20,000 nucleotides of DNA from an uncultured virus (IMG/VR IMGVR_UViG_3300030708_001148). Lineage: Duplodnaviria; Heunggongvirae; Uroviricota; Caudoviricetes. The stretch is taken from the IMG/VR virus record IMGVR_UViG_3300030708_001148. One strand, written 5' to 3'. Positions 2,888 through 18,776 of this stretch are shown here, one piece after another. The position numbers were made by a program, and so were the translations under genes. Position 1 is the stretch's first letter. Every line of letters begins with the position of its first letter. The notes beneath the pieces are model-generated. The model did not search any database. It was not told the origin of the DNA and saw only the letters and a program-made list of their open reading frames with translations.

Positions 2888-3107
2888 TCTTTACCCTCCG
2901 TTTGATATTGTCTAACTCATCTGCTTGTATTTTCTCCGCTTCCCCATGTATGAGTAACATGTCTAACAACAAAGGCAACGGTGTATGTCGCGCTTCATTG
3001 GGACTGATGTTAAATGTTCTACAGTAGGTATACAATAGAATCTGCATACCTACTTTCAAATCAGTCTGTCTGCCTTGTAATCCCTTACGGATTAGTTGGC
3101 TTTTTTT
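2877..3107 (-). CDS. C-terminal extension (T-like part) of the tail assembly chaperone, reached by -1 frameshift
   Basis: The -1 frame reads KK-SQLIRKGLQGRQTDLKVGMQILLYTYCRTFNISPNEARHTP... to TGA at 2879-2877; no convincing own RBS; it opens one codon before the A7 slippery run. Confidence 0.75.
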   Translation of the reverse strand, partial: KKSQLIRKGLQGRQTDLKVGMQILLYTYCRTFNISPNEARHTPLPLLLDMLLIHGEAEKIQADELDNIKRRVKSGG

Positions 3108-3119
3108 GTATCAGCCTCC
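3078..3119 (-). promoter_or_regulatory. Programmed -1 ribosomal frameshift signal
   Basis: mRNA GGAGG (3119-3115), 7 nt spacer, A AAA AAA heptamer (3107-3101), 6 nt spacer, hairpin UAAUCC-GUAAG-GGAUUA (3094-3078). Confidence 0.8.
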
Positions 3120-3448
3120 ATCATCTCACCAAAGGGATTCGGAAGAACTTCCTTCAATTGTGACCCAATATAGGGACTCAATCTCAGCATTTCTATGGGA
3201 GACAACGAAGGTTCTGTTTTCTCAACAAACTCTTCTATCATATAACGATACATTTTATCCATATTGATGTCAAGTTGTTGATTACCATCAACTTTCATCA
3301 AGGTTCCAAGTGCTTGTTCCACTTGAAGCCATGTGGGTTCCTTTACCCACACTTTCAATATATCGTCTGAATCAGGGCTAACCCTCAATTCATGGCATTC
3401 GGTATCACTTTTGGCAAATAGCCTACTCTTATCTTCTACTACTTTCAT
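3092..3448 (-). CDS. Tail assembly chaperone (G-like, ~118 aa)
   Basis: Probable ATG at 3448 (MKVVEDKSRLF) with AGGTGG RBS rather than the ORF-track start 3487; sits between tail tube and tape measure; ends ...DTKKAN on a slippery run. Confidence 0.75.
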   Translation of the reverse strand: MKVVEDKSRLFAKSDTECHELRVSPDSDDILKVWVKEPTWLQVEQALGTLMKVDGNQQLDINMDKMYRYMIEEFVEKTEPSLSPIEMLRLSPYIGSQLKEVLPNPFGEMMEADTKKAN

Positions 3449-3453
3449 GTTTC

Positions 3454-3531
3454 TTTCCACCTTCATAAAAAACCAACAAACAAACAATGTTGGTGGAAAC
3501 TAATGGGTATTCTTGTGCTTTTTGAATACCC
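3454..3531 (-). terminator. Structured intergenic region after the tail tube gene (hairpins plus U-tract)
   Basis: Inverted repeats GGGTATTC(3505-3512)/GAATACCC(3524-3531); CCAACA(3473-3478)/TGTTGG(3488-3493) followed on the mRNA by U6 (3472-3467); TTTCCACC(3454-3461)/GGTGGAAA(3492-3499). Confidence 0.5.
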
Positions 3532-3534
3532 TCC

Positions 3535-5178
3535 CTAATAATCTTGATTTATGATTGCCCACATTCCCTTATACTTGCAAGAATGCAATGTTCTTGCTGA
3601 TAGTGTTAGATTCAGTTCTACTGGTCCCTTGTCTTCTGGGAAGGGGAAATCTACTGATTGAGTTATGAAGTCCCTGAGTTCTATCTCGATGAAATCACCA
3701 TCAGCAATACCTACATTCTCATCTGCTTGTAAGGTGTCGTCAGCATCCGAGTCAAACTCCAAATCCTTGCTGAATTTTAGTATTATCTTGTTGTCTGCAC
3801 CTAGATGCTCTCCTTCCTGCCGAAGATAGTTGTAGATTTTCATATCTGTTACAAGCATCGTGAAACTCAAATCATAGGTTCTTTGCCCACCAATGTGTGC
3901 AGAAACCATATCTTTACTGTAGTTTCCAATGTATCTGTGAGCAGTTAGGTTGTTATTGATAGTAAGACTTCCATTCTTTATCTTAGCCCAAGTTTGTCCG
4001 TAAAGAGTGATTGTGCCGTCTGAGTAGAAATAAGGCTCTACGTTTCTATCTGGATACATGGTGGCATTATCCCTGAAATTAGATAGTTTCTCTAGTTCAT
4101 TCGTCTTACCGTTTCTAGGTGCATACCCAGAGGGAACATCAAACAACCTTCTGGACATCAAATCCAGAGAACACTTGAGTTCCTGTCCTTCCTCAAAGTT
4201 CATGGTAAAAGTATTGACTTGACAACCTGTCACGATTCTTGTGAAGATATCTGCATATGGGCTACTACCGTCTAGACCTCCTGTGTATCTGTTTTCGGTG
4301 GCTATATCTTCTTTCTCATAACTAACCTCAATTGCAAATGATGGAAGAGTTCCATCGTTTCTTTCCGTAAAGGTGTATAGCATGGCACTTGAACCTTCAT
4401 CCGTGTCTAACTTCTCTAAGTCATTGTATGCCTCTAACTCACCAGTCATTACTCCTTGACTCCAAGTGGTAGGGGCTGGAGGGAATATCTTGTTGCCTTC
4501 GACTCTGTATATTCTAGTACTATCGTGCGCGGGTACGGCAAATCCAGTGTATCCATCAGTAACTGCGGGTAAAACATCATCAGTTGTGTCAATGGAATCA
4601 ATCCTACCTAATGCATAATACAACCAAGCACCATGATTCATCGAGATATCCATTGATACTCCTGTAACAGTAGAGCCTTTCTTGTATTGGTATGTGAGGT
4701 TTCTAGTTCCACCCAGAGCCAAGTTCATCTGTGCTATCTCAACTTCAAGTGAAGGAGGGGTGAAACTGTTAACCAATCCTAGCCAATTATCAGAAAGAAG
4801 CGTATAACTACCGTTTGTCGGGTCTACTGATACACAGGGACTACCGTAGGCTTCCAATGTAGCAGTTACAGTAGTAGCCCCAGATGTATCTTCTTCTAAT
4901 GCAACCTCTGCATTCTCATCAAAAGTAAAGGCAGTAGCCGTGTTTGACTTGACCATGAAAGACATAGTTTTGCTTGAGCCTGTGATTCTAATCATACAAC
5001 CCTGATACAAATCTGGTACTAATACGTAGTTGTTAGTGAAATCTGTGTGAGGAGTCAATGTCGCTCCGTCTAAATCTGCATTATCACCCAAATATATGCT
5101 AGTCTCTGGAATAAATGTGGCAGAAGCACCTGCACCCGACCACACCTCATTTTGAATTATACTGTTAGTCGTTGCCAT
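3535..5178 (-). CDS. Major tail tube protein (547 aa)
   Basis: Tube-type segments 'LPSFAIEVSY', 'TRIVTGCQVNTFTMNFEEGQELKCSLDLMS', 'KIKNGSLTINNNL', 'GQRTYDLSFTM', 'GPVELNLTLSAR'; located between terminator and chaperone; no sheath gene in the block. Confidence 0.75.
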   Translation of the reverse strand: MATTNSIIQNEVWSGAGASATFIPETSIYLGDNADLDGATLTPHTDFTNNYVLVPDLYQGCMIRITGSSKTMSFMVKSNTATAFTFDENAEVALEEDTSGATTVTATLEAYGSPCVSVDPTNGSYTLLSDNWLGLVNSFTPPSLEVEIAQMNLALGGTRNLTYQYKKGSTVTGVSMDISMNHGAWLYYALGRIDSIDTTDDVLPAVTDGYTGFAVPAHDSTRIYRVEGNKIFPPAPTTWSQGVMTGELEAYNDLEKLDTDEGSSAMLYTFTERNDGTLPSFAIEVSYEKEDIATENRYTGGLDGSSPYADIFTRIVTGCQVNTFTMNFEEGQELKCSLDLMSRRLFDVPSGYAPRNGKTNELEKLSNFRDNATMYPDRNVEPYFYSDGTITLYGQTWAKIKNGSLTINNNLTAHRYIGNYSKDMVSAHIGGQRTYDLSFTMLVTDMKIYNYLRQEGEHLGADNKIILKFSKDLEFDSDADDTLQADENVGIADGDFIEIELRDFITQSVDFPFPEDKGPVELNLTLSARTLHSCKYKGMWAIINQDY

Positions 5179-5726
5179 TACGTCACACTCCTACCCATTC
5201 GCTTCATCTCCACCGATAACCTATAACCTAATAGTTTCTTTCCTCTGTCATTTGCATCACTTCGACTAGTTATTTTAATCGTATCGGCACTTTCTCTATA
5301 TGTCGTTCCACCTTCTGTAGTAGTTACCTGTGGTCGTAATGAATTGTTTTCTATGATATACCTTACGATTCTATACAAATCTTGAAGCCTAGTTCTACCA
5401 GTAATCTTGTTTCCATCCGTATTTACGAAATCCCTACGATATAGAACCCTTATGTGTACTGTGAAGGTAAATGTATCATTTCTGACTGCATAGTCAATAG
5501 TAGGGTAACTGGTTGAATTGCTATCTTCGTAAATTACGATTATAGCACCGCTATCGGCATCTGCTCTCCTTCCTTCATTTGCCTCGACTGAGCGTACATC
5601 AACGATTTGAGGAACTGATACTGCACCATGTATCTGATTAGCACTTGCTAACGCTACAGAGGCGGAAGACCAATTATCCTTGAGTAGCCTCACTAAGAAG
5701 GTAACTTCATCCAATATTACTACCAT
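5178..5726 (-). CDS. Putative tail terminator/tail completion protein (182 aa)
   Basis: Immediately upstream of the tube gene with TAATG overlap; 'LVRLLKDNW...FTFTVHIR...RLQDLYRIVRYII...YRLSVEM' alpha/beta pattern typical of gpU/gp17-like proteins. Confidence 0.6.
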   Translation of the reverse strand: MVVILDEVTFLVRLLKDNWSSASVALASANQIHGAVSVPQIVDVRSVEANEGRRADADSGAIIVIYEDSNSTSYPTIDYAVRNDTFTFTVHIRVLYRRDFVNTDGNKITGRTRLQDLYRIVRYIIENNSLRPQVTTTEGGTTYRESADTIKITSRSDANDRGKKLLGYRLSVEMKRMGRSVT

Positions 5727-5992
5727 TATTTTATCTCCTTTACTTTTGGAGCCTTTGACATCTTAAATGACTGTATCATTTTCTTATTGGCTTCTAGCAT
5801 CAATTCTTTAGATTTGATTAGGGATTGCCTTATTGCACTTTCTATTACCTCACTATCTGTACGGTAGTAATTTTCTAACCCATGTTCTTTCAGATATTCT
5901 TCCATATCCATTTCTTTTCTAATGATGTCTTTTCGTAGAGTATCAATATCTGCGGCTTTGGTCATTAGTGCGTTTGCTTCCTCTATTGACAT
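5726..5992 (-). CDS. Hypothetical neck-region protein (~88 aa)
   Basis: Likely ATG at 5992 (MSIEEANALM), 4 nt after the adaptor stop; helical and charged; stop overlaps the next start. Confidence 0.6.
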   Translation of the reverse strand: MSIEEANALMTKAADIDTLRKDIIRKEMDMEEYLKEHGLENYYRTDSEVIESAIRQSLIKSKELMLEANKKMIQSFKMSKAPKVKEIK

Positions 5993-5996
5993 AATA

Positions 5997-7124
5997 TCAG
6001 TCCACGAATACGATAGTCTCCTTCTTACCATCAATTATCTTATTCGCTTCCTCAATCAATATGTCATGTTTTGCTCGTAAGTCAATGTTAGAGCCTGTCT
6101 CAGCAATTAGTATGGAGTTATCGTCATGACGAATGACTTCTGCCGCTACAAACTTGGTTGCGGCATCATGAATAGAAGCGGGTACTCTAGCATCTCCCGC
6201 AACATAGGATACCTTCAAGGAATGACTCCTACGGTATGGGTATTCTTGTCTGAATAGAACTATACCCTCATCAGATAGTTTCCAGAAGTCTTCGTTTCTA
6301 CCTTGATTCTCTATTGTGGCAAAGTCAGTTACCGTACCAAATGTAGAAGTCAAGACGTTATTCTTTCCGTCATCTCCCGGCAAGAGAGAAGTAATGCAAA
6401 CAGTATCAGAATACTCTGTATCTACAGATGCATAGAAGAAATCAGAGACATGATAATTCTTGCCATTGACTACAATTGTACTTCCGCTTGATGGGTCTAC
6501 TGCTATGATAGATTTAGCACTATTTTCCATTGTAAATTTAGCAGTCTTTGCCGGAAACACTTCATTGATGCAGTCAGCAATCTGACTTGCCGTTGTCTTA
6601 GGCCCGTAATCATCATAGAAATCTTGAACCAAAGATGTGTTCTTCAAATCAAACCTTAACTTGGCAGGTAGCCCTACTGTCAATGATATCGTCCAATCGC
6701 TTGTTGTTGCTGTTGAAGGAACCTTTAGTTTAGCCGTCACACCTGCTAAATCTACGTATTCGTTTCCTTGCCAAGCCTCCAATCTCAATATCTTCTGTAT
6801 CTTTCGATGTTGTAATTTGATGAATCCTACGTAATCCTTCCACTCTCTAACAGGATAGTGAGCCAATCTGCCATAGTTGAAATCATGTACTTCATTATGA
6901 TAAATCAGAGGTCTGTAAGACATCTTGGTCTTCTCATCTATCTTATCCTCCACCCTTTTGATTATCTTTCCTACTTCTGCCTTAGTAGGAGTTGTATTAG
7001 TGCCAAATTGGGCTATTTGCAAGAGATTTGAGACATCTGTATGGGTAGTATAGTACCCATTACCCTCATCGTATTCTCCTGCGTTAATGTTTGTAAAATC
7101 ACTAGGGGAACTAACCTTGCCCAC
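5997..7124 (-). CDS. Head-tail adaptor/connector protein with a large insertion (~375 aa)
   Basis: Probable GTG at 7124 after GAGGTGA RBS; N-terminal 'YYTTHTDVSNLLQ...PTKAEVGKIIKRVEDKIDEKT' and C-terminal 'LKVSYVAGDARVPASIHDAATKFVAAEV' match HK97 gp6/SPP1 gp15-type adaptors. Confidence 0.7.
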   Translation of the reverse strand: MGKVSSPSDFTNINAGEYDEGNGYYTTHTDVSNLLQIAQFGTNTTPTKAEVGKIIKRVEDKIDEKTKMSYRPLIYHNEVHDFNYGRLAHYPVREWKDYVGFIKLQHRKIQKILRLEAWQGNEYVDLAGVTAKLKVPSTATTSDWTISLTVGLPAKLRFDLKNTSLVQDFYDDYGPKTTASQIADCINEVFPAKTAKFTMENSAKSIIAVDPSSGSTIVVNGKNYHVSDFFYASVDTEYSDTVCITSLLPGDDGKNNVLTSTFGTVTDFATIENQGRNEDFWKLSDEGIVLFRQEYPYRRSHSLKVSYVAGDARVPASIHDAATKFVAAEVIRHDDNSILIAETGSNIDLRAKHDILIEEANKIIDGKKETIVFVD

Positions 7125-7125
7125 C

Positions 7126-9516
7126 TTAATCACCTCTTCTGTTTCCTATCTTATCTATTAGTGATTTTAAGGTTTTGAGAGATTTATTCAATGTTAATAA
7201 CAAAGTCTGATTCTTCTGTTGTAATGTTACTCTCCCTCTAGTTTTTGTTCTCTGTTGGGTAAATCTAGAAGTAGAACCTATGTCCCTTTGTAGTTCACCA
7301 GAAGGTATTGCCTTTACTACGGCAATGTCCTGTTTGATTTGCTTGTCTATTTTTATTGCTACTACTCTTCCAGTCTGTTCAAAGTCTGCTTCGTATGGTG
7401 CAGTTTCCAAGAGATGCTTGAATCTGTTCCAGAATCGTTGTTTGATTATCTTTATCTTTCTAACATATTGTTCTGGTGCTTCATCTGGATAATCTTGTAT
7501 GTAATTTTGGAATACTTCATCCGTAATGTAGGCTGTATCAGACATGTCAACAAGTCTAGGAGTAGTCTCATCCTCCGCATTATCAGATTCTTGACCCTCT
7601 TCCATTATGTTGTCTAATTCTCTAGAATTAGACCTATAGTCACCTTCTAATTCACTAGGATTGATATCAGTAACTTGACGTTGTTCTTCCTCTAATTCCT
7701 CATCTATATCTGAGTCAAATACTTGTGAATACTGATAATCAGAAGCCTCTTCCAATCTTTCCTCTATTTCTCCCGGCTCTGTCTCATCTACAAAATTTTC
7801 ATCTATCATGTATTCGTAGAATTTTATTGATGGTTTATCGAAATTAACCGATTCGTTATCACTAGTTATATCCTCAAGAAGTTCTCTATTCTTATTGGCT
7901 TCTACCTTTTCTTGGTCTTTTATTTGTTTACTCCTAACCTTAGTTTTTGAAGTAGTTCCTTGTGTGAAAAGATTCTTGAAAGTTAATGGGTCAGTCAAAT
8001 TCTTAGTTACGTTTCCAAGACTCATTTCATAATTCAAAGAGTACTCAAATATCAGCACTCCTAAGTCTAATGTCATGTCTTTGGGTACTAGATATTCTTG
8101 TATCTCATAGTGATGTTCTGGTTTACTCAAAATATAACCGGACTCATCCCTTTCTCCAAAATTACCAGTTGTCTTTCTAATTGTATTTGAGATGAAAGCC
8201 TCCTTGAAATTTTCAGATTGTTTCAATGAGTTTAGATAATTAATAATTTTTTTCAAGTCATCGTAACTAGAATCTGGTTCATCAGTTGGCAAATCATATG
8301 TTTCCCTTTCCGCAAATAGTCCAGTTGTTCTTATTTCACTTGATGCCTTATCTCCCATAATAGTTAATGAGTGTGTTCTAGGGTCACTAACAGTAAAATC
8401 TGTTGCCTTTGCACCACGATAACTTTCTTTTCCATCCTGTCCCTTCTTTGGGTTTTGCACATAGTAAACATCAAAGAAACCAGATTCAGGGTCTTCCATT
8501 CTCTGAGTTTCATAAGCCATTAATTCCTCTCTTTTGGTTTCTATTTTTCTTTTAGGAGTTCCATCTTCATTTTTTTCATTTGACGCTACATACTGTACTC
8601 TGGGTTTTCCTTCTATTTTGGTTCTTCTAATTCTTCTTGTCTTTTCATTTGTCTCTTTATCTGTAACTGTAGTTGACTTTAAATCCTTGAGTTTACCAAA
8701 ACCATATTTCTCAAACATCTTGTTCCAATACTCGTATGAATTAACAGTAACAACCATAGTAGGAGCATTACTGTTACCTTTTCTAGTCACACTAATGGAT
8801 TGTCTGAGAATATCCTCATCTATGAGAGGACTTTCAGTCATAAAGAAGTTCATCATTTCTACTTGTCTTGACTCTTCGTCTTCCCTGCTCAATGCTGGTT
8901 TCTCTACTTGAGGTCCATAGGGTAGTCTCATTGTTCCTCTATCATAACTATAGCCAACTAATTCGCTTCTGTTTTCAATCAGTTCCTTTATGGACATATT
9001 GTCTAATGAGGGCACACCAGAATCAGATGATGTTATATTCATTTTTGACCTTAGATAGAACTTATCTCCATCTTCTACGTTAATCTGAAACTGTTGTTTT
9101 CTTTGCTCAAACTCTTCTCCATCTCGCACGACTTTAAATTTCTTGAGTAAGACATTCTCTCCACCATCATCAGAATAAAGTGTCATATTTTCTATCTTAT
9201 TTACAAAATTCAATAAAGCCCTACGCCAAGCATCATTGGAAAACTTGTATTTTTCCGTATTCATTTCTGTAAACCTATGGTTAAAGGTAATTCCTCGCAT
9301 TGATTTCTTGGCCTTTTTCATGGTGTTTGTTGGGTTTTGAGCCAAATCATGTAGAATGTATCCTACCATTAACTCAAAAATTCTGTTTCTTGTGTTTCCC
9401 TCTAGTAGTTCTAAGGCACTACGGTCCAATGCTCTTTCTGGAAGTGCTATTACTTCTTTGAGGGCATTAGGTATGGTGTTACCTTCCTCATCTACTAGTG
9501 GTATTCTGATGTCCAT
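7126..9516 (-). CDS. Large acidic hypothetical protein (796 aa)
   Basis: Long ORF coupled to both neighbours; very Glu/Asp-rich region in the C-terminal third, basic C-terminus; no recognised motif. Confidence 0.8.
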   Translation of the reverse strand: MDIRIPLVDEEGNTIPNALKEVIALPERALDRSALELLEGNTRNRIFELMVGYILHDLAQNPTNTMKKAKKSMRGITFNHRFTEMNTEKYKFSNDAWRRALLNFVNKIENMTLYSDDGGENVLLKKFKVVRDGEEFEQRKQQFQINVEDGDKFYLRSKMNITSSDSGVPSLDNMSIKELIENRSELVGYSYDRGTMRLPYGPQVEKPALSREDEESRQVEMMNFFMTESPLIDEDILRQSISVTRKGNSNAPTMVVTVNSYEYWNKMFEKYGFGKLKDLKSTTVTDKETNEKTRRIRRTKIEGKPRVQYVASNEKNEDGTPKRKIETKREELMAYETQRMEDPESGFFDVYYVQNPKKGQDGKESYRGAKATDFTVSDPRTHSLTIMGDKASSEIRTTGLFAERETYDLPTDEPDSSYDDLKKIINYLNSLKQSENFKEAFISNTIRKTTGNFGERDESGYILSKPEHHYEIQEYLVPKDMTLDLGVLIFEYSLNYEMSLGNVTKNLTDPLTFKNLFTQGTTSKTKVRSKQIKDQEKVEANKNRELLEDITSDNESVNFDKPSIKFYEYMIDENFVDETEPGEIEERLEEASDYQYSQVFDSDIDEELEEEQRQVTDINPSELEGDYRSNSRELDNIMEEGQESDNAEDETTPRLVDMSDTAYITDEVFQNYIQDYPDEAPEQYVRKIKIIKQRFWNRFKHLLETAPYEADFEQTGRVVAIKIDKQIKQDIAVVKAIPSGELQRDIGSTSRFTQQRTKTRGRVTLQQKNQTLLLTLNKSLKTLKSLIDKIGNRRGD

Positions 9517-9517
9517 A

Positions 9518-10210
9518 TTATGCCAACCACTTTGCCCATGCGATACCCTTGCTCATTGCAGATGCTAGACCAAGACCGCTAGACGGTGGTGTGTAGGACA
9601 TTTGACCTGTTTGTGGGTCTATCCAGTATGGATTATTCATGTTGTCATAACCCGCAGGTGGTATAGGATATCCAGATTGATTGTTGAAGGCCATATGTTG
9701 TTGTTGCATCATTGCATTTGCTTGAACAGAAGCGTTACCCCCAGTTATCATTGATGGGTCTACTCCACTAGGATTAGCAACAGGAGGCTGACTACTTCCT
9801 TGTCCTTGTGAAGCAAAACCCTGAGATTCTAGATATTGTGCTTTAGCCATTCTTCTTTGCATTATTACTTCTGAGTTAATTGCAGAAGCAAGAAGTGTCT
9901 GTAGGTCTAGATTGATGTTAGCCTCAGTTATTGAACCCATAGCGGCAACTGCATCTGGAGACATCGTTATGTCACCATTGTTATTTGTTACAAAGGCCAT
10001 TTGCGGTAGCATTTGACCCAATACTTTCTCTACTGTATCAGTCATTAACTGTGCTAATGCGGCTAGAAACGCTTCTCCATGATACTGGAAGAAGTCCTCT
10101 ACGTGGTTCTCTTGCAAGGTCAACAGATTGTTCATTGTTTTGAACTGAGCCTGTTGGTTAGACTGCATTGTATTCATTAAAGTGCTATTACTAGTGCCAA
10201 ATAATCCCAT
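9518..10210 (-). CDS. Gln/Asn/Met-rich protein with WW-like motif and amphipathic termini (~230 aa)
   Basis: Probable ATG at 10210 (MGLFGTSNS); helical N-half, low-complexity Q/N/S/P region, 'YPIPPAGYDNMNNPYWIDPQTGQMSYTPP', C-terminal 'GLGLASAMSKGIAWAKWLA'. Confidence 0.75.
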   Translation of the reverse strand: MGLFGTSNSTLMNTMQSNQQAQFKTMNNLLTLQENHVEDFFQYHGEAFLAALAQLMTDTVEKVLGQMLPQMAFVTNNNGDITMSPDAVAAMGSITEANINLDLQTLLASAINSEVIMQRRMAKAQYLESQGFASQGQGSSQPPVANPSGVDPSMITGGNASVQANAMMQQQHMAFNNQSGYPIPPAGYDNMNNPYWIDPQTGQMSYTPPSSGLGLASAMSKGIAWAKWLA

Positions 10211-10211
10211 T

Positions 10212-10889
10212 TTACTCACTTCCCTCTTCTTGTTCCTCTTCTATTTTTGCGCCCTCAGTCAATAAAACTTTCATTCTATCTCCTACCGCATTATGTTCTA
10301 TGATTAATCTGAACAACTCAGCCTCTTTAGTTTCTTCTGTTCCAGATGGAGGTTTAATTGTCCAACCCAATGCCGAAAGAGATTGTATGTCTGATTCTTT
10401 CAGACTCTTTAGTGGCCCTGCTGACAATGGGTTTAGAGTCTGCATACTAGGAGCCTTTGGAATGTATGCGCTGAAAGACAGACCATGTTCCTCTGCTAGT
10501 ATCTGTTGTTCCAGCATTTCGTACTGCCTGTGTATGGCCGCATGTTTATCACAATAAGTACCTCTCATGGGATACCCCTTGCGTACCTTGTGTAGTGGCA
10601 AAGGGGGTCTTAGATTATCACTAGCATCCCATACTTTGTGAGTACCGCACACTACACATCTATCTTTGATGTTGTATGCAAACTTGTATGGTATTTTCAG
10701 AAATGTCTTGTTTTCTGGTTTCAGTACCTTTACTATTTCTTTCAACTGTTTCTTTGGCTTTACGCTCTTGTACTCATATGTGGTAATCGGTCCAGAAGAC
10801 CTTGCGGCATCTAGTTTATTTAGAAACACGGATGAAGCCGTTGGTGTTTCTGCCCCTATTAATGAGGGCATCTGGTATTGCATTGACAT
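10212..10889 (-). CDS. Putative zinc-finger protein (225 aa)
   Basis: 'RCVVCGTH' and 'TYCDKH' give a CxxC...CxxH ligand set, followed by helical/coiled-coil segments and an acidic tail. Confidence 0.7.
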   Translation of the reverse strand: MSMQYQMPSLIGAETPTASSVFLNKLDAARSSGPITTYEYKSVKPKKQLKEIVKVLKPENKTFLKIPYKFAYNIKDRCVVCGTHKVWDASDNLRPPLPLHKVRKGYPMRGTYCDKHAAIHRQYEMLEQQILAEEHGLSFSAYIPKAPSMQTLNPLSAGPLKSLKESDIQSLSALGWTIKPPSGTEETKEAELFRLIIEHNAVGDRMKVLLTEGAKIEEEQEEGSE

Positions 10890-10901
10890 GTGCTTCCCGT
10901 A

Positions 10902-11576
10902 TCAGTAGTCCTTTATCATTGTTAGGACACCTCTGTAAACCATCTCTGAGTCTGATTTAGCACTAACTATGTATTTGAAACAAGGTATTCCCTTGTCGTT
11001 TAACCTTTGCATTCCATCTCTAAATGCAGAAAAAATTGGGTGTTTCTCTATTGGCCCATTGTGGTCATACCTGTCTTTCCATAAATCGTATTTGTTAGCC
11101 CATATTCCTACTGCTAATGGATAATCAGATTCTCTTTTCTTCTTTCTCTTACCATTGGGTAGACTCCATTCAGAAGCACATATGGTATCAACGAGAAACG
11201 TCCAACACAACTGCTGTTCTATGTCATAGTGTTTGTTCATGTGCCTATCGTCTATCATGAAAATGATGTATTTGACTCTACGACTTCTCATATCGTGTAT
11301 CCAATCGTTCCAATATGTCACTTGCCCACCGATATCAGCACTTTTTACAGTATGAGCATCACCATCTAGTTTGACATATTTCCTAGTTGCTCTACCCTTG
11401 CCGACTGTCCTTTCTCTAATATCAGGAACCTCACCTCTTGTTCTGAGTTGGTGATTCATTGTGGTTTTACCTGCTTGGGTAGCACCGTATATTCCAAAGT
11501 TAATCGCATGTACCCTTTGATATATTTTGTTTAGTCCCTCGACTATCAGAATAGCAAACCCTGCCATCACTGACAA
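10902..11576 (-). CDS. Arf/Sar1-like small GTPase (Ras superfamily, TRAFAC; 224 aa)
   Basis: All five G motifs in order: G1 GATQAGKTT, G2 RTVG, G3 DIGGQ, beta4 YIIFMIDD, G4 WANKYD, G5 VSAK; TTG start after GTGGTGA RBS (alternative ATG at 11567); hydrophobic N-terminal helix. Confidence 0.9.
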   Translation of the reverse strand: MSVMAGFAILIVEGLNKIYQRVHAINFGIYGATQAGKTTMNHQLRTRGEVPDIRERTVGKGRATRKYVKLDGDAHTVKSADIGGQVTYWNDWIHDMRSRRVKYIIFMIDDRHMNKHYDIEQQLCWTFLVDTICASEWSLPNGKRKKKRESDYPLAVGIWANKYDLWKDRYDHNGPIEKHPIFSAFRDGMQRLNDKGIPCFKYIVSAKSDSEMVYRGVLTMIKDY

Positions 11577-11580
11577 GGTA

Positions 11581-11805
11581 TCACCACAGATGATTCCAGA
11601 AATCTACTACTCCATTCCAAGCAATTGATAGAGTGTTTATTCCTGCTATAGCAAATGCTTGTCCCAATATAAAACTAGTAAGCGATGCTACTCCACCCCA
11701 AAACCAGAATCTAGCCCTTAGAAACCAGATATCAGCAGAGTGCGCTCTTTGTAAGTCATATGCGAGCGTAGACTCATCCATTCCGAATAGTATTTCGCTG
11801 ACCAT
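11581..11805 (-). CDS. Small membrane protein (74 aa)
   Basis: GTGAGG RBS; hydrophobic 'FWFWGGVASLTSFILGQAFAIAGI' and Trp-rich amphipathic C-terminus 'SIAWNGVVDFWNHLW'. Confidence 0.75.
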   Translation of the reverse strand: MVSEILFGMDESTLAYDLQRAHSADIWFLRARFWFWGGVASLTSFILGQAFAIAGINTLSIAWNGVVDFWNHLW

Positions 11806-11819
11806 ACATATTCCTCACA

Positions 11820-12230
11820 CTACTGTTCTACTGTCAAGAATGTCGGGTTAACACCTTGTGGTTCAGGTTCTAGGTTTGGTAGATTGCTGTCACCGTATAT
11901 GTTTGACATAGGATTTGCTTGTTGGAATGACCTGATTGAATCCCTGACTCTCTTTCGGTTATCCTCTTCCCTAGCCATTCTCTGCCAATATGCGTCAATT
12001 CTTCTTTGAAGTAGCCATTCCTCTATGAAATCGTTGAGGAACAAATCAAAGAAGGCTTTGATACACATTATTCCTCCTACCGTCACTACTCCAAAGAGAA
12101 GTGCATGTTCTAGGTGTCCATAAGGAAATGAAATTCCGTATTGGGCATAGAAGAAGATATTCATTCCACTAATCGCACCAACAAATAGTATCGTCATTAC
12201 TAGTCTTGTGTCTGTATCTATACTTGGCAT
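11820..12230 (-). CDS. Two-pass membrane protein with charged helical tail (~136 aa)
   Basis: Probable ATG at 12230 (MPSIDTDT); TM1 'LVMTILFVGAISGMNIFFYA', TM2 'ALLFGVVTVGGIMCIKAFF', then charged helix 'EEWLLQRRIDAYWQRMAREEDNRKRVRDSIR'. Confidence 0.75.
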   Translation of the reverse strand: MPSIDTDTRLVMTILFVGAISGMNIFFYAQYGISFPYGHLEHALLFGVVTVGGIMCIKAFFDLFLNDFIEEWLLQRRIDAYWQRMAREEDNRKRVRDSIRSFQQANPMSNIYGDSNLPNLEPEPQGVNPTFLTVEQ

Positions 12231-12235
12231 ATTAC

Positions 12236-12538
12236 TCACTCAAAGGTTATGGAGACTTGGCCTGTTCCTGCAATCTGAACGTATAGACCACTTCCCGCTA
12301 TTGCCCCATGTGTGTCAATCTCAAAGTTAAATCCTTCTCCAGTAGAATGATTTCCTTTCGTTTGTATTCTGAACATTTCCACTTTACCAGTAGTTGTCGA
12401 ATTGCTAGAATCCCATACTTTAACACTAAATGTACTAGTACTACAATCTGCTATTGTAGTAGCACTTATGCTCATTAGTTTGTGCTTAGATGTACATACC
12501 ACTGTGCTACCAGTAAGGATTCCACTTGTTGCTACCAT
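12236..12538 (-). CDS. Small beta-rich virion-associated protein (100 aa)
   Basis: GGAGG RBS; Thr/Ser/Gly-rich strands ending 'GLYVQIAGTGQVSITFE', typical of small jelly-roll-like proteins near capsid genes. Function inferred. Confidence 0.6.
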   Translation of the reverse strand: MVATSGILTGSTVVCTSKHKLMSISATTIADCSTSTFSVKVWDSSNSTTTGKVEMFRIQTKGNHSTGEGFNFEIDTHGAIAGSGLYVQIAGTGQVSITFE

Positions 12539-12540
12539 GC

Positions 12541-13011
12541 CTATGCCTCCACTAGTCTCTCAATTAATTCTGCTTTTTTACCTTCCGTAGAAAGTCCTCT
12601 TTCCTCAAGTAGAGGTTTTAGTTGTTTTATGGTTAGTTTATCCAGTTTTGGAGGAAGAGGTTCTAACTTTTCTTCCACCTCTGGTTCTGGTTCTGGTATT
12701 GCTTCCTCCTTTGGTTTGAGTTTCAATGTTGGTAGTTTCCTCTTAGCAGGATTTCCACCTAGAAGTTTGTCTACAACTTCATGATAGTTCTTCAAACCAA
12801 ACCACTTTACTAGTGATTTCTGTGTGGACTTTGGTGCATTTACAATGTATTCCTTGTCGGATGCATCAAAAGTGGCTACCAAATCCTTGTGTCCGAAGAC
12901 CATATCTATTACCAACTTTGCTGGCATTTCTATTGTCTCGTCACGCCTCCACTTGTATTTTCCTCGTCCTAACTCCTTCGTTCCTATTCCTATATACTTC
13001 ACTTTCGCCAT
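12541..13011 (-). CDS. SAP-domain protein (~156 aa)
   Basis: Probable ATG at 13011 (MAKVKYIG) after GGTGA RBS; Pro/Glu linker then 'LDKLTIKQLKPLLEERGLSTEGKKAELIERL', a canonical SAP motif. Confidence 0.8.
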   Translation of the reverse strand: MAKVKYIGIGTKELGRGKYKWRRDETIEMPAKLVIDMVFGHKDLVATFDASDKEYIVNAPKSTQKSLVKWFGLKNYHEVVDKLLGGNPAKRKLPTLKLKPKEEAIPEPEPEVEEKLEPLPPKLDKLTIKQLKPLLEERGLSTEGKKAELIERLVEA

Positions 13012-13032
13012 AGTTTCACCTGTCGTTAGGGG

Positions 13033-13074
13033 GTAGTAACCCCCTTCCTGTTGCTCTAGGAAGAGGGTCACTAC
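13033..13074 (-). other. 17-bp RNA stem-loop in the intergenic region after the capsid genes
   Basis: 13033-13049 pairs with 13058-13074; the two + strand A/C mismatches are G-U wobbles on the - strand; 8-nt loop AGAGCAAC. Confidence 0.7.
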
Positions 13075-13086
13075 TTTATGTTTTAC

Positions 13087-13464
13087 TCAGATTAAACCGT
13101 AAACACGGATTCTCAGTGTTGGCTCAAACTCATCACCAGAGACTACTTCTGTATTAGCACCAGAAGCACCCTTGATTGCCCTTATCACGAATGATGAGGT
13201 AGAGGTAGAAGAATCATCAGCCAACTCATATGCACCGCTTTGTACGGCTAGTTGCACATGATATGTGTGTGGCAAATCTGCCTGTCCGGTAATCATGACG
13301 GCATTGATTCTGCTCAGTCCCAATTCTGCACCTGTAACTAGAATACCGTCATCATAGTCGGTGTTTCCAGTATCCATGTCTACTACTGCGTCTACGTAGT
13401 ATTCGTCACCCGATACTTTGGGTGTGGTCATACCTTTGTGGTCTGCTAGAATGGTAATCGCCAT
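13087..13464 (-). CDS. Putative capsid decoration/minor capsid protein (125 aa)
   Basis: Directly downstream of MCP with strong GAGGTG RBS; acidic beta-rich; 'DYDDGI...AELGLSRINAV...LRIRVYG'. Confidence 0.6.
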   Translation of the reverse strand: MAITILADHKGMTTPKVSGDEYYVDAVVDMDTGNTDYDDGILVTGAELGLSRINAVMITGQADLPHTYHVQLAVQSGAYELADDSSTSTSSFVIRAIKGASGANTEVVSGDEFEPTLRIRVYGLI

Positions 13465-13473
13465 CTAAACACC

Positions 13474-14925
13474 TCACGCACTCGTAATGTTGGTTATCTT
13501 TCCTTGTCCCTTGAAGAAGGAGCAACCAGTCTCACCGATGGTTCGGTACATGGCTTGGTTTCCTAGTTTCTTGACACCGAATGGGTTTCCACTATCAATA
13601 CCATCCTCAAAGTACTGAGTAGGCTTAACCATTGCAAGCCATAGATGGTCTGTATCTAGCATCAGTATGTCGCTCAGTTTGTTAGCGGCAGACTGTCCGG
13701 TCTGTGGCATGTCCTTGCATGGGATTAGGGGTATTCCGTAGTACGAAGCAACCCTGAAACCAACCTCAGAACCCTTGACACCCTTCACACCACCGTGTGT
13801 TGGTACTATTTCTGCGGTATCCATGAACCTCTCCTGAGACTGTAGTAGGTCCGAGATGTGCTGAATGGTATCGTATCCAGTTAGCATAACCTTCGGGTTT
13901 CCACCGTTTAGTCTTAGGTCACGGATTACTGTGTTCAGAAGGGAAAGAGTTAGTGTCCTTCCCTGTGTTGAACCATATCCATCACCGAAGTTCACAACTG
14001 CATCCATGAAAGATGGAGTTGCGGCGTATCCTTGATTGTTACCAGAGACAAGGAATCGGTTGCCCGTTTCCGTTCCAGACGCATTTCCAGTTCTCGCATT
14101 AGAACCATAAAGTTTGGATAGTTTCAGGTTTATCATATCATCGGCGGTATCTCCTGAGTTACTATCTTTGTCGTTCTCTATCATTCCACCTGCGTTAGCC
14201 ATAGCCGCCAACTCAGCAGACGAAGAAACAACCTTCATGAGAGAAGTGTAGTTCAACTCCATCTTGTCAATACCGTTTATGTCGTAGTCCTCAAGAGGCA
14301 TTAGTAGCATCTTGTTCTGCATCTCAGCATGGTGCTTTGCCATATCCTCACGGACAATAGCCCTAACATCACCTACACCGTCATCCATCTGTGCCATTTC
14401 TAGACCTAGTTCTGTGAACTCAAACATGTGAGCAATAGTCTTCGGACTCATGAACAGTTTGGTGTACTCTGGAGCAAGTGGCCTGAATCCATCGGATTCT
14501 AGAGCCGCATTCTCACCAACACCACCAATGTGGTCTGGTCTGATAGCGGCGGCATTAGCAGAAGTAAAAGTCCCATCTAGGTCTGCGGTTCCTGTGGTAA
14601 TCTTTGCACCTGAACCACCTGCTGGCCTTGACTTTAGTATCCTCCAACCAGAAGAAGTGTAAGGTCGCTTAGAGAGCATTGCAAAAGCATTGACCTCTCT
14701 GTTTAGCATAGACCAAACCTTCTGTCCATACAGAACACCGTAAAGGTCGTTCAGACCTTCTGCGCCCGAAAACGCCGCAGACGTTACATCGTGTCCTATG
14801 CCATCGTAGTTTCCACCGAAACCTCCAACGACACCTCCAGCCTTAAGAAGCGTATTACCGCTTCCCCCGCCAACTCCATAGGTTGCGGCTTCCAAATCTC
14901 TCATTGTCTTAATGTATCCACTCAT
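13474..14925 (-). CDS. Major capsid protein (HK97 fold, 483 aa)
   Basis: Follows protease-scaffold; GGTGA RBS; 'LYGQKVWSMLNREVNAFAMLSKRPYTSSGWR', 'PKTIAHMFE', 'LTLSLLNTVI...GGNPKVMLTGYDT', 'GFRVASYYGIPLIP', 'ILMLDTDHL' as recalled from archaeal tailed-virus MCPs. Confidence 0.9.
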   Translation of the reverse strand: MSGYIKTMRDLEAATYGVGGGSGNTLLKAGGVVGGFGGNYDGIGHDVTSAAFSGAEGLNDLYGVLYGQKVWSMLNREVNAFAMLSKRPYTSSGWRILKSRPAGGSGAKITTGTADLDGTFTSANAAAIRPDHIGGVGENAALESDGFRPLAPEYTKLFMSPKTIAHMFEFTELGLEMAQMDDGVGDVRAIVREDMAKHHAEMQNKMLLMPLEDYDINGIDKMELNYTSLMKVVSSSAELAAMANAGGMIENDKDSNSGDTADDMINLKLSKLYGSNARTGNASGTETGNRFLVSGNNQGYAATPSFMDAVVNFGDGYGSTQGRTLTLSLLNTVIRDLRLNGGNPKVMLTGYDTIQHISDLLQSQERFMDTAEIVPTHGGVKGVKGSEVGFRVASYYGIPLIPCKDMPQTGQSAANKLSDILMLDTDHLWLAMVKPTQYFEDGIDSGNPFGVKKLGNQAMYRTIGETGCSFFKGQGKITNITSA

Positions 14926-16208: not shown

Positions 16209-18776
16209 TTATTCTGGAAATGGTAAACTAGCGAATCTATCTTTAGTAATGTCTCTCAATTCCTCATCTCCCTTGTTTGTAAGCATATCCTGCTTCTTTC
16301 CTGTCCATGCCAACCAAGTTCTTTTTTCATTTACAGGTATTACTCTAAAATGCATACGAGTCTTGAATTTATCACCATCTAAACGATACTCATGATACCC
16401 TTCTTTCTGCATTCCAAACTTCAAGTCTCCCTCATCAATTGTAATTCCATCTCCTGTAGTCTTAGCAACTATTGCAGGATACTTACCAGACTTACCAAAC
16501 AGGTCGTAGATATCTGCTGATTTCTCTAATCTAATAGTCCATGCATTTGTGGAGTCGCCCAACTTGATAATGAAATCTAAATTACCATCCTTTCTTTTCT
16601 TTAGAATGAAAGTTCCCTCATCGGTTTCTTCTTTAATTATTATACCCTCATCGGTTTTGAAAGTCATATTCTTACCATTGAAAACTAATCCGTGTTTATC
16701 CTGTTCCTTTAGGAATTCTAACAGTTTACTGTCATTGCTCTCAAATATATCTTCAAATGGCTCCACTAAATGTATCTTAACCCATTCAAGTATTTCATTG
16801 AAATGCATAGGTTTGTTTCCCTTTCTTCTAATGTAATCTATTACTCCAACTCTAAAATCCTCAGTAGCCTTCTCCAGCATTTCATCTAGTTGATTCTTCC
16901 AGAGTTCAAGGTTGTATAGTGCGTTTTTCTCCATCAACTTATCACCTTCAAACCCATATATCGTGTATCCTTCGTAATTAGACTTGAGAATTATTTCTGC
17001 TTCTCCATGTATGTTGTCTGTGATATAGAACGACTTCTTCTCTTCCTTCCTATTTTTGAGTCCACTTCTAACCTTGAATGCCCTCCCTACATCTCTAGAC
17101 AGTTCTGGTAGTTCAGTAACCAATGCTAGTGATTTCTTTGTCTTCTTGGACAATTGCTCTAGTGTCTCTATCTTGTCCGGTAGTTCTACTTCCGGTATCT
17201 CAATAAGTTTCGCTGAATAAAGACTGTAGCCGTCTTTTTTCTTCTTTACCTCATCTACTTTGACCCTGATGATTGAACCTACCTGTACCGACTTCTTTGT
17301 ATTCAGAGCCTTACCTACCACCAGATATTCTTCTCCATCTAAAATAACTGTATTCATTCCCTCTGCATCTTCTTCCATCAATGGCCCTATTCCCATAGTG
17401 TACGAATGCAGATTGTTTCCTGTCTTACTCTTATCTAGAACTATTACATCCAAATCAACGAACTTCTTCCACTTAATCCATTTTGGATTCTTCTTTACTC
17501 CACGATAGTATGTGGATTCTATATCCTTTATCACCACTCCCTCAGAAGCAGGTAGTTCCATTATTGCTCTTGAGTACTCTTCCACTTCATCAATAGAGTC
17601 AGCAATCCTAGTATCCTTCTTGGATGGGAAAGCCAAATCTTCCGAGGAATGTTCTGCATATTGGTAGAAAAGTATGTTGATTCTTTCTCTGAGAGTGTCC
17701 TCTATGATAGATTTGTCATCATGTTTCATTATGTCAAAAACATGCGCTCTCAAATCACCATCGGTTCCTTTCTTGAATACGTGTTTGACTGTATCTGCTC
17801 TATGAAGAGGCTCACCATCCTTGAACAATAATAGTTCTGCATCCAATATGCAATTTTGGAACGCCTTGTTCTTCATTGCCTCGACTTGCTTGGGACATTT
17901 ATCAGTGATATCTTTCTCATTGAAGGAATATATCTTTATCTTGTCCTTTATCTTGTGAATCTGTATTCTCATACCATCATACTTCTCTTGTACGATGAAC
18001 TCTCCACTTAGTCCCTTCAATGATTTCATATCATCAATCTCAAAGATTCTGTACATCGGCTTATTGGGTATTAGGAAACCTAGTTTCTCATCTTCTGATT
18101 TTTCTGCCTTAGCAATGTCCAACTGCACTAGATTCTTCCAGTCCTCTCCACCGTATTTCTCATTGAATAGTTCCTTCAAGTCCCTATACAGAGTCTTGAA
18201 CTTGGATTTTAATCTCTTAGTGTCTTTGTCATCACCATAGTGTTCTGAGATGTACAGTGGAATATCCTTTGGCTCTAAGTCCAAACCCGGAACTCCCATC
18301 GTTATTTCATCGGGTTTGAAACCATGCTTATCCAACAATTTGTCAGGTAGTGTGTTTGAGTGAGAGCGTAATGCATAGTGAATGAAGGAAATGAACAAGG
18401 AATCGTTTTCAAGTAAAGCATCAACTACCTTGTCGTTTCCTATCTGCTTACCAAATGGGTCACTAACCTCATCTGATTTGAAGCGCATTTCTTTAATTGC
18501 CTTGTATAGTTTCTCAGCCTGTACGCTTTCTGGATTCATGGCTTCCTTTTCAAAAGGCAGTTCTTCGTCTATGTACTTCTTTAGTTCCCTTGCGAAATCA
18601 TTCAGAGAATCAAATTGCTTCTGTATTGACTTTACCGTTTCTCTCCACTTACTGCCATACTCAGCAGGGTCTTCCTTTGCGGAAAGATACGAGAATCTAA
18701 CTTTCTCAAAAAAAGTTAGTATACGCTTGGTTAGATGCTTGTCTTTCTTGTCAAACATTAAACCGGAACGTGGCAT
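16209..18776 (-). CDS. lig: Multidomain ATP-dependent DNA ligase (855 aa)
   Basis: Motif I QEKYDGMR, III ILDAEL, IIIa HVFDIM, IV SEGVVIK, V WIKWKK, then OB domain (DLDVIVL...); about 230-aa N-terminal helical extension and about 300-aa C-terminal extension. Confidence 0.9.
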   Translation of the reverse strand: MPRSGLMFDKKDKHLTKRILTFFEKVRFSYLSAKEDPAEYGSKWRETVKSIQKQFDSLNDFARELKKYIDEELPFEKEAMNPESVQAEKLYKAIKEMRFKSDEVSDPFGKQIGNDKVVDALLENDSLFISFIHYALRSHSNTLPDKLLDKHGFKPDEITMGVPGLDLEPKDIPLYISEHYGDDKDTKRLKSKFKTLYRDLKELFNEKYGGEDWKNLVQLDIAKAEKSEDEKLGFLIPNKPMYRIFEIDDMKSLKGLSGEFIVQEKYDGMRIQIHKIKDKIKIYSFNEKDITDKCPKQVEAMKNKAFQNCILDAELLLFKDGEPLHRADTVKHVFKKGTDGDLRAHVFDIMKHDDKSIIEDTLRERINILFYQYAEHSSEDLAFPSKKDTRIADSIDEVEEYSRAIMELPASEGVVIKDIESTYYRGVKKNPKWIKWKKFVDLDVIVLDKSKTGNNLHSYTMGIGPLMEEDAEGMNTVILDGEEYLVVGKALNTKKSVQVGSIIRVKVDEVKKKKDGYSLYSAKLIEIPEVELPDKIETLEQLSKKTKKSLALVTELPELSRDVGRAFKVRSGLKNRKEEKKSFYITDNIHGEAEIILKSNYEGYTIYGFEGDKLMEKNALYNLELWKNQLDEMLEKATEDFRVGVIDYIRRKGNKPMHFNEILEWVKIHLVEPFEDIFESNDSKLLEFLKEQDKHGLVFNGKNMTFKTDEGIIIKEETDEGTFILKKRKDGNLDFIIKLGDSTNAWTIRLEKSADIYDLFGKSGKYPAIVAKTTGDGITIDEGDLKFGMQKEGYHEYRLDGDKFKTRMHFRVIPVNEKRTWLAWTGKKQDMLTNKGDEELRDITKDRFASLPFPE

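Follow-up and report, generated by a model that had tools for sequence, protein, structure and literature searches.

One archaeal small GTPase, ArvA, which has a Zn-ribbon protein encoded alongside it, drives the vesiculation of membranes (PMC10927574). As set out in that paper, the ArvA-ArvB-ArvC system (ArvABC, or OapABC), found in Haloferax volcanii and other archaea, acts on the archaeal membrane and is encoded by a conserved small operon, in which a GTPase of the Ras superfamily, bearing a hydrophobic or amphipathic helix at its N-terminus, is accompanied by a zinc-type protein, proposed to be a negative regulator, and by another small protein. The egress machinery of archaeal tailed viruses has been described as completely uncharacterised (PMC10791045). 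We analysed a block of five genes encoding a small GTPase, two membrane proteins, a Cys/His protein and a Q/N/M-rich protein in a 20,000-nucleotide stretch of DNA from an uncultured tailed virus (IMG/VR record IMGVR_UViG_3300030708_001148; the whole stretch is hereafter called the window). The five-gene module is real, deeply conserved and so far undescribed; its function is something that we infer.

Of the systems compared, ArvABC is the nearest in its working. The viral block likewise has a GTPase with a hydrophobic N-terminal helix, whose gene belongs to a small, conserved operon that also encodes a zinc-type protein and a further small protein. Unlike ArvABC, it includes genes for two integral membrane proteins and for a low-complexity protein rich in Q, N and M, has a different gene order and is encoded by a virus. 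The OapB (ArvB, PF09846) profile matched in none of four virus genomes at E ≤ 0.01, and OapC (ArvC, PF09845) exceeded its cut-off in none of three, with one 14.9-bit match elsewhere that contained an internal stop; the control genomes, those of Haloferax volcanii and Methanosarcina acetivorans for OapB, were positive for both. Nor did OapC match any of 19 relatives of the viral Cys/His protein at E ≤ 5. Since neither profile identifies its protein in the virus genomes, whereas both do so in the control genomes, the viral block is, by the measure of these profiles, not a member of the ArvABC system.

Pfam and PHROGs family scans of the window proteins identify the source as a magrovirus-like tailed archaeal virus. 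The families recognised are an 855-amino-acid (aa) ATP-dependent DNA ligase, an HK97-type prohead protease, a major capsid protein, a SAP-domain protein, a head-tail adaptor, a tail tube protein, a tail assembly chaperone and a tape-measure protein. The carriers of the cassette are abundant ocean viruses infecting marine archaea. Every long open reading frame (ORF) of the window lies on the minus strand (23 window proteins), and in the direction of transcription the block comprises TM139, a 139-aa hairpin membrane protein (11820..12239, starting at GTG 12239 or at ATG 12230, the start in the preliminary description), TM74, a 74-aa single-pass Trp-rich membrane protein recognised by hydropathy (11581..11805), the 224-aa small GTPase (10902..11576), Zn225, a 225-aa Cys/His protein with CxxC and CxxH pairs (10212..10889), and QN233, a 233-aa Q/N/M-rich protein (9518..10219, starting at GTG 10219 or ATG 10210). 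The preliminary description had reported five close, co-oriented genes, and we found the same arrangement between 12239 and 9518, with intergenic gaps of 1–14 nt depending on the start codons; the sizes, hydrophobic segments, Trp content, GTPase motifs, Cys/His pairs and Q/N/M-rich composition given there were likewise as described. Ratios of nonsynonymous to synonymous substitution rates (dN/dS) against the closest relative were 0.025 for TM139, 0.062 for TM74, 0.033 for the GTPase, 0.022 for Zn225 and 0.077 for QN233; the corresponding ratios were 0.29 (capsid gene) and 0.42 (protease). Thus, the five ORFs are genuine genes under strong purifying selection.

A lack of co-occurrence in related genomes had been named beforehand as an outcome that would refute the block, and the genes clearly do occur together. 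Among the best 80 of 325 viral contigs matching a GTPase probe, 69 loci have the complete set in unchanged order; in the remaining 11, the DNA stops 1–861 nt away from the GTPase, on whichever side lacks a gene. A second probe, the capsid protein, was chosen against circularity and gave the best 80 of at least 600 loci. Wherever at least 4.3 kb of DNA follows the capsid gene, all five genes are present (40/40 loci), and in the other 40, which are shorter, the genes follow in order as far as the DNA extends. Median identities in the GTPase-probe loci were 78% for the GTPase (a value somewhat favoured by how the loci were selected), 70% for TM74, 69% for Zn225, 65% for QN233 and 63% for TM139, so that the five proteins are conserved at least as well as the capsid protein in the same loci (63%). 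All four long genomes carry a single block. In a complete 101.5-kb relative, one long late block occupies one strand and a replication block the opposite strand, and the five genes lie in the middle of the late block. Given dN/dS values of 0.02–0.08 and synteny in every locus with enough DNA, the five genes are more than a chance assembly, and they almost certainly constitute one functional unit of magrovirus-type archaeal tailed viruses.

Relatives of the GTPase are few, with only 60 at E ≤ 1 × 10−3 among 1.84 billion representative proteins (phmmer). Several of these are full-length at 29–40% identity, and they led to a second lineage, represented by the best 80 of at least 472 contigs. Hidden Markov models (HMMs), built from the very loci scored, placed all five genes in order in 79 of these 80 loci, the other being cut by the locus end. 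A tblastn comparison with the 23 window proteins (E ≤ 1 × 10−3, within 10 kb on either side) detected nothing but the GTPase in this lineage. Its ORFs nevertheless follow the same plan: a 145–222-aa membrane protein with a charged tail and a 73–89-aa Trp-rich membrane protein precede the GTPase, and a 293–357-aa Cys protein with an MRGTYCxxH-type motif and a 190–228-aa protein of 37–49% Q+N+M+G follow it. A third lineage, reached through another divergent relative, has the complete block in 4/4 loci.

Profile–profile alignment (hhalign) linked the corresponding proteins. Lineage 1, that of the window, against lineage 2 scored 99.9% for the GTPase, 96.5% for Zn225 (E = 1 × 10−9) and 93% for QN233 (E = 3.4 × 10−7, 86 columns), and QN233 of lineage 3 scored 96% against lineage 1. 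The membrane proteins of lineage 3 matched those of lineage 2 (TM139, 96.5%, E = 7 × 10−10; TM74, 86%, E = 5 × 10−6) and matched those of lineage 1 weakly (TM139, 24%, E = 8 × 10−4; TM74, E = 0.02–0.03). In mismatched controls, the 20 off-diagonal pairs reached at most 1.8%, save one motif hit at 38%. Neighbourhoods differ between the lineages. In the window, capsid-proximal genes flank the block on one side and the head-tail adaptor gene on the other; in L092 (lineage 2) it is upstream of genes for a helix-turn-helix protein and the large terminase, the latter about 7 kb away; and in L173 (lineage 3) it directly follows a thermosome gene (2820–4481; Cpn60_TCP1, E = 1.7 × 10−140). The placement between capsid and neck genes that was first described therefore holds for the window's lineage and not for the others. 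Since the block is kept intact in three lineages with differing neighbourhoods, the five genes move as a unit, and on the evidence of these comparisons the block is older than its surroundings.

The distribution of the GTPase outside these lineages is narrow. Three distant relatives (P0156, P0148 and P0132) had no matching loci in the viral collection, and tblastn with the GTPase found no match in the phage collection, cultured haloarchaeal relatives included. Among the genomes of 185,579 prokaryote species, only two contigs (63–67% identity) matched, both from one metagenome-assembled genome labelled Maricaulis sp.; these are probably mis-binned magrovirus DNA and not a bacterial gene. No archaeal provirus with the GTPase was present among the same 185,579 species.

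The GTPase is intact, as first reported, in that its sequence has all of the guanine-nucleotide-binding motifs expected: G1 (GATQAGKT, 11463–11486), switch-I T57 (motif RT57, 11406–11408), G3 (DIGGQ, 11322–11336), G4 (NKYD, 11085–11096) and G5 (SAK, 10956–10964), all on the minus strand. Key residues of these motifs are invariant in a 21-sequence alignment. G1 and NKxD are found in all 56 distinct lineage-1 GTPases and in nearly all of 71 in lineage 2, and DxxG in all that were inspected. A hydrophobic helix (aa 3–22; 11511–11570, minus strand) precedes G1; in most homologues the protein starts at an ATG three codons in (MAGF...). Upstream of the P-loop, the best 12-residue hydropathy reaches a median of 2.52 across lineage-1 proteins and of 1.67 across those of lineage 2, and a K/R-rich loop before beta-5 (K143–R148; 11133–11150, minus strand) is kept in all lineages. 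The hydrophobic segment and this loop would be membrane-binding features.

The assignment of the GTPase to the Arf-like proteins stood as to fold and weak profile matches and did not reach Pfam cut-offs. The window protein scored 16.8 bits against SRPRB (cut-off 25; E = 0.0044) and 16.3 bits against Arf (PF00025; cut-off 22.3; E = 0.0068). Among 11 relatives, Arf matched seven (best E = 3.1 × 10−6), level with MMR_HSR1, and Roc, Ras and SRPRB (4/11) matched fewer; TIGR00231 (small_GTP) gave 24.3 bits for the first-listed relative against a cut-off of 42.5. An AlphaFold2 model (predicted local distance difference test, pLDDT, 70; predicted template-modelling score 0.73) has a 20-residue N-terminal helix ahead of beta-1. 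Its top structural neighbours are Arf and Arl structures, with Arf and G-alpha rows tied within 1 Z, and Foldseek returned G-alpha, Rab and Ras at template-modelling scores of about 0.5. In a PDB sequence search, 8oun_A was best (E = 0.015), followed by Arl8/10 and KRas at about 0.1. Thus, the family is Arf-like by fold, and new and isolated by sequence.

With Arf, Arl and Sar1 the viral protein shares a helix before the G domain and NKxD, and with Arf and Sar1 the DxGG[Q/H] motif with a Trp seven residues on, familiar from those proteins. It differs from Arf in scoring below the Pfam cut-off, in its G5 (SAK), in its extra polybasic loop, in a residue after DxxG that is not fixed, in the absence of a Gly-2 lipidation site and in having no homologue of a coat, guanine-nucleotide exchange factor (GEF) or GTPase-activating protein (GAP) nearby. 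SR-beta, an Arf-like GTPase that tethers SR-alpha to the membrane, is a further point of comparison: SRPRB is the best Pfam match of the window GTPase, albeit below cut-off, and both have a strongly hydrophobic N-terminus directly before the P-loop. This suggests a similar logic, that of a GTP-dependent membrane tether for a soluble partner. Unlike SR-beta, the viral protein has no recognised SRX- or longin-like partner and no visible link to protein targeting.

The two membrane proteins and the tape-measure protein are the only window proteins with transmembrane-like segments by hydropathy prediction. TM139 has segments at aa 13–31 (12147–12203) and 46–64 (12048–12104), separated by a short loop, and a 70-residue charged tail with 9 K/R and 12 D/E; its position, size and topology are maintained in lineages 2 and 3. 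TM74 has an ESTLA motif within its N-terminal 32 aa (11761–11775), one segment at aa 38–56 (11638–11694) and six Trp in 74 residues (8.1%), with a Trp-rich C-terminal end devoid of K/R; all these coordinates are on the minus strand. Counterparts of TM74 in lineages 2 and 3, of 73–85 aa, have 3–7 Trp and are encoded directly upstream of the GTPase. From the distribution of charge, both ends of TM139 would be inside and the Trp-rich end of TM74 outside. By hydropathy TM139 resembles a class II holin, small, with two transmembrane segments and a highly charged C-terminal tail, and as in holin–antiholin cassettes a second small membrane protein adjoins it and the location is with late genes. Unlike such cassettes, the block has no holin family match (none at E ≤ 1 with the holin Pfam families in eight TM139 and eight TM74 relatives), no endolysin and a TM139 dN/dS of 0.025, and unlike known lysis cassettes it has three soluble partners including a GTPase. 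The earlier statement that the window has no recognisable holin–endolysin pair held, and no lytic enzyme family was found among the 23 window proteins.

Zn225 carries C78xxC81 (10647–10658), an invariant PPLP (aa 95–98; 10596–10607) and a Cys-His pair in MRGTYC113xxH116 (10542–10553), and its C-terminal half is helical. QN233 (9.9% Q, 8.6% N and 8.2% M) begins with MGLFG (10196–10210), has a conserved core at about aa 40–130 and a large low-complexity C-terminal half that includes YWIDPQTG (aa 198–205; 9605–9628), and ends in GIAWAKWLA (9521–9547); all of these features are on the minus strand. An MG-aromatic-F N-terminus is common to QN233 of the three lineages, and the GIAWAKWLA end is found in lineage 1. 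The YWxDPxTG motif occurs in 58/58 distinct QN233 proteins and 0/55 Zn225 proteins of lineage 1; in lineage 2 it occurs in 56/60 of the Zn proteins and 0/60 of the QN proteins. At the site of the lineage-2 motif, all 55 lineage-1 Zn225 proteins have PP[LI]P. The genes for Zn225 and QN233 abut or overlap in the lineages inspected. Since the motif changes gene and the reading frames abut or overlap, these sequences suggest that Zn225 and QN233 act as a pair.

Searches with the four partners of the GTPase identified no relatives of known function. Family, structure, PDB and PADLOC searches gave no family, fold or defence-system match for any of the four. The roles first proposed for them (anchor or GEF, adaptor, coat) found no backing, in that the searches showed no similarity of any partner to coat, GEF/GAP, longin/roadblock, ESCRT or holin proteins. 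Two other possibilities, that the genes are ordinary virion proteins or a known conflict system, were not borne out either: none of the five matches a PHROGs virion family, and no PADLOC family matched them at E ≤ 0.01. The WW-like motif ascribed to QN233 reduces to the short YWxDPxTG alone, with no Pfam WW match at E ≤ 1 in eight QN233 relatives. The MGLFG start of QN233, which we took to resemble ESCRT-III N-termini, gained no support at sequence level: Snf7 gave no match at E ≤ 1, and ESCRT-III chains did not appear when the PDB was searched with the profile at E ≤ 10. ArfGAP was considered for Zn225, since C-x2-H-x3-H-R follows the second Cys in the window protein and resembles ArfGAP, and was rejected: the Arg five residues past His116 is not kept in lineage 2, the ArfGap profile matched none of 19 Zn225 relatives at E ≤ 5, and the pattern is CxxC...CxxH, compared with the Cys4 finger of ArfGAP. 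PDB profile searches with QN233 and Zn225 returned noise only, and the ESM Atlas gave nothing usable (best score 0.82 for Zn225; QN233 matched its own cluster only, with an Atlas model pLDDT of 0.51). A complex prediction for the GTPase with Zn225 scored 0.00 without controls and speaks neither for nor against binding.

Genes next to the block vary. Directly downstream in the window is a 796-aa acidic protein (7126–9516, minus strand), which is hypervariable, has no family match and was matched by tblastn in just 10/80 related loci, although the genes on either side of it are conserved; the interval from QN233 to the adaptor gene ranges from about 1.3 to 4 kb across relatives, and the complete 101.5-kb relative has a 962-aa protein there. 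Several lineage-2 loci have, after the Q/N-rich gene, an 80–99-aa protein with two hydrophobic segments (L092, 12298–12597; L086, 12369–12623; L091, 9385–9669; L102, 7594–7836; L109, 4625–4876), which may be a sixth, lineage-specific member of the block. In L092, at least seven genes around the block (3307–9121 and 13615–14667) share a DAAWxxLK-like peptide (e.g. MNPIDAAWSILKA and MSPMDAAWAILKA), placed at the N-terminal start and in one case internally; these genes may be a paralogous family or may bear a common targeting or processing tag. Downstream of the block in L173 are several small ORFs that look membrane-bound or secreted (8677–9129, 9433–9753 and 9741–10856).

We consider that the block probably encodes a membrane-associated GTPase complex. 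In the explanation we favour, TM139, a hairpin with both ends inside and a long charged cytoplasmic tail, and TM74, with its N-terminus inside and its Trp-rich end outside, would form a platform in the host cell membrane. The Arf-like GTPase would be held on the membrane by its hydrophobic N-terminal helix and polybasic loop and, in the GTP state, would recruit the soluble Zn225–QN233 pair. Through its hydrophobic termini and low-complexity region, QN233 might then concentrate at the membrane and deform or breach it. The switch would be made together with the virion genes and act late in infection, and its likeliest output would be the release of finished virions from a peptidoglycan-free cell. 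Egress as the output is a tentative assignment, and to the favoured explanation as a whole, a late membrane-anchored GTP switch for virion release, we give a probability of about 0.35.

A number of observations weigh against this explanation. No partner matched a membrane-remodelling, coat, GEF/GAP or holin family or fold. The GTPase model is of moderate confidence only, with switch regions below a pLDDT of 50. Of the 56 distinct lineage-1 GTPases, 39 have Q and 17 have E directly after DxxG; lineage 2 has Q, E, D or H there, and one relative has A, and therefore GTP hydrolysis may not be the conserved step. Known phage lysis genes evolve fast; conservation of the five genes exceeds that of the capsid gene, and this is more in line with a machine bound to conserved partners than with a simple holin. 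In the window the block is surrounded by head and neck genes, a setting in which one would expect assembly or virion proteins, and the complete relative has small transmembrane ORFs outside the block that are equally possible lysis genes (86 and 53 aa at 76.0–76.5 kb, and 83 aa at 62.5 kb). Contacts among the five proteins are what we infer, as are topology, GTP dependence and output.

Its position also invites the view that the block is a membrane-tethered platform for assembly or packaging, an idea similar to membrane-bound prohead initiation in phage T4. The transmembrane proteins and GTPase would mark a membrane site, the Zn225–QN233 pair, perhaps as a condensate, would gather portal, scaffold, capsid or terminase there, and the GTP state would serve as a checkpoint. 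The block is co-oriented with, and inside or adjoining, morphogenesis genes in two lineages (the window and L092), the thermosome, a folding helper, adjoins it in L173, its conservation above the capsid protein fits a multi-partner assembly factor, and QN233 has a large low-complexity region. We nonetheless think such a platform unlikely, as none of the proteins matches scaffold, portal-accessory or chaperone families and the position of the block relative to capsid, portal and terminase shifts between lineages, unlike that of ordinary head-assembly genes. Moreover, tailed-virus assembly as such does without the GTPase, which tblastn did not find in the cultured haloarchaeal relatives of the phage collection. 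The same structural setting would suit a virion-borne entry complex, packed in head or tail, with the membrane proteins forming a DNA channel and the GTPase aiding genome delivery. As a precedent for this reading, tailed phages encode their ejection and internal proteins within structural operons, and such proteins can have transmembrane segments; the hypervariable 796-aa protein is of the kind expected of an injected arms-race protein, and the N-terminal DAAWxxLK-like motif of the L092 genes before the block might be a packaging tag. A nucleotide switch requires GTP, however, and the virion is without it; there is no PHROGs structural family among the five proteins and no N-terminal tag common to them, and genes for particle components do not usually shift in position with respect to head and tail genes as this block does. 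We therefore regard an entry complex as a poor candidate.

Takeover of the host membrane without lysis, with ArvA-like vesiculation, internal or external membrane structures, a change of envelope or a block to superinfection as its result, has its model in the archaeal GTPase with an N-terminal helix that is encoded with Zn-ribbon and SepF-like proteins and controls vesicle formation (PMC10927574). In the viral block, too, a helix-bearing Arf-like GTPase is found together with a Cys/His protein and with a partner whose N-terminus is hydrophobic. The OapB (0/4) and OapC (0/3) results reported above, against positive control genomes, count against takeover, the 60 detectable GTPase relatives in 1.84 billion are far fewer than would be expected were the 1,666-member ArvA family (PMC10927574) within reach, and placement with late genes speaks against an early role, so that we rate takeover as rather improbable. 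That the five are merely neighbours with unrelated jobs, kept together by operon inertia, would be in keeping with four of the five having no recognisable function. This we consider very improbable, as the block stays intact and ordered while its surroundings are replaced, in three lineages with unalignable flanks, and the YWxDPxTG motif swaps between two adjacent members.

Several other features of these viruses lie outside the block. The 855-aa ligase (16209–18776, minus strand; ligase domain at aa 253–437) is inside the structural module; a ligase in this place is a hallmark of magrovirus groups A and B according to PMC5434244. The placement is thus known for these groups; long N- and C-terminal extensions flank the ligase domain. 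A 176-aa head-module protein (12541–13071, minus strand) has a C-terminal SAP domain (Pfam E = 1.2 × 10−10), a DNA-binding motif best known from eukaryotes, and a fast-diverging N-terminal part (30–43% identity in most relatives). After the tail genes, the complete relative (G002) encodes late proteins of 2461 and 3473 aa (L165, 5903–13288; G002, 33617–44038), the former without a Pfam match and both presumably fibres or host-recognition proteins. One marine metatranscriptome had three short contigs on the region of the block, at 11610–11765 (94% alike), 12225–12376 (96%) and 13145–13428 (100%), although DNA carry-over is possible.

The words 'GTP' and 'GTPase' are absent from the main text, and from the supplements as far as these were covered, of the magrovirus genome papers examined, and literature searches found no GTPase in these viruses; the JGI label 'GTPase SAR1 family protein' is attached to some homologues. 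The block may represent a self-contained device by which archaeal tailed viruses leave the cell, powered by an Arf-like GTPase and equipped with a membrane platform of its own and a low-complexity scaffold, that opens or remodels a peptidoglycan-free envelope and is unrelated to holin–endolysin lysis, pyramids and ESCRT budding. Stated in this full form the proposal is doubtful; if true, a prokaryotic virus would for the first time be credited with a small-GTPase membrane system of its own. The block offers a concrete candidate for egress, with a nucleotide switch, conservation above that of the capsid protein and presence in lineages that share almost nothing else nearby, and it is amenable to expression, mutation and imaging without host culture. 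With it, the few prokaryotic small-GTPase membrane systems gain an Arf-like GTPase family, isolated by sequence, that belongs to viruses and has membrane partners dedicated to it, and the block bears on the origin of such GTP switches before eukaryotes.

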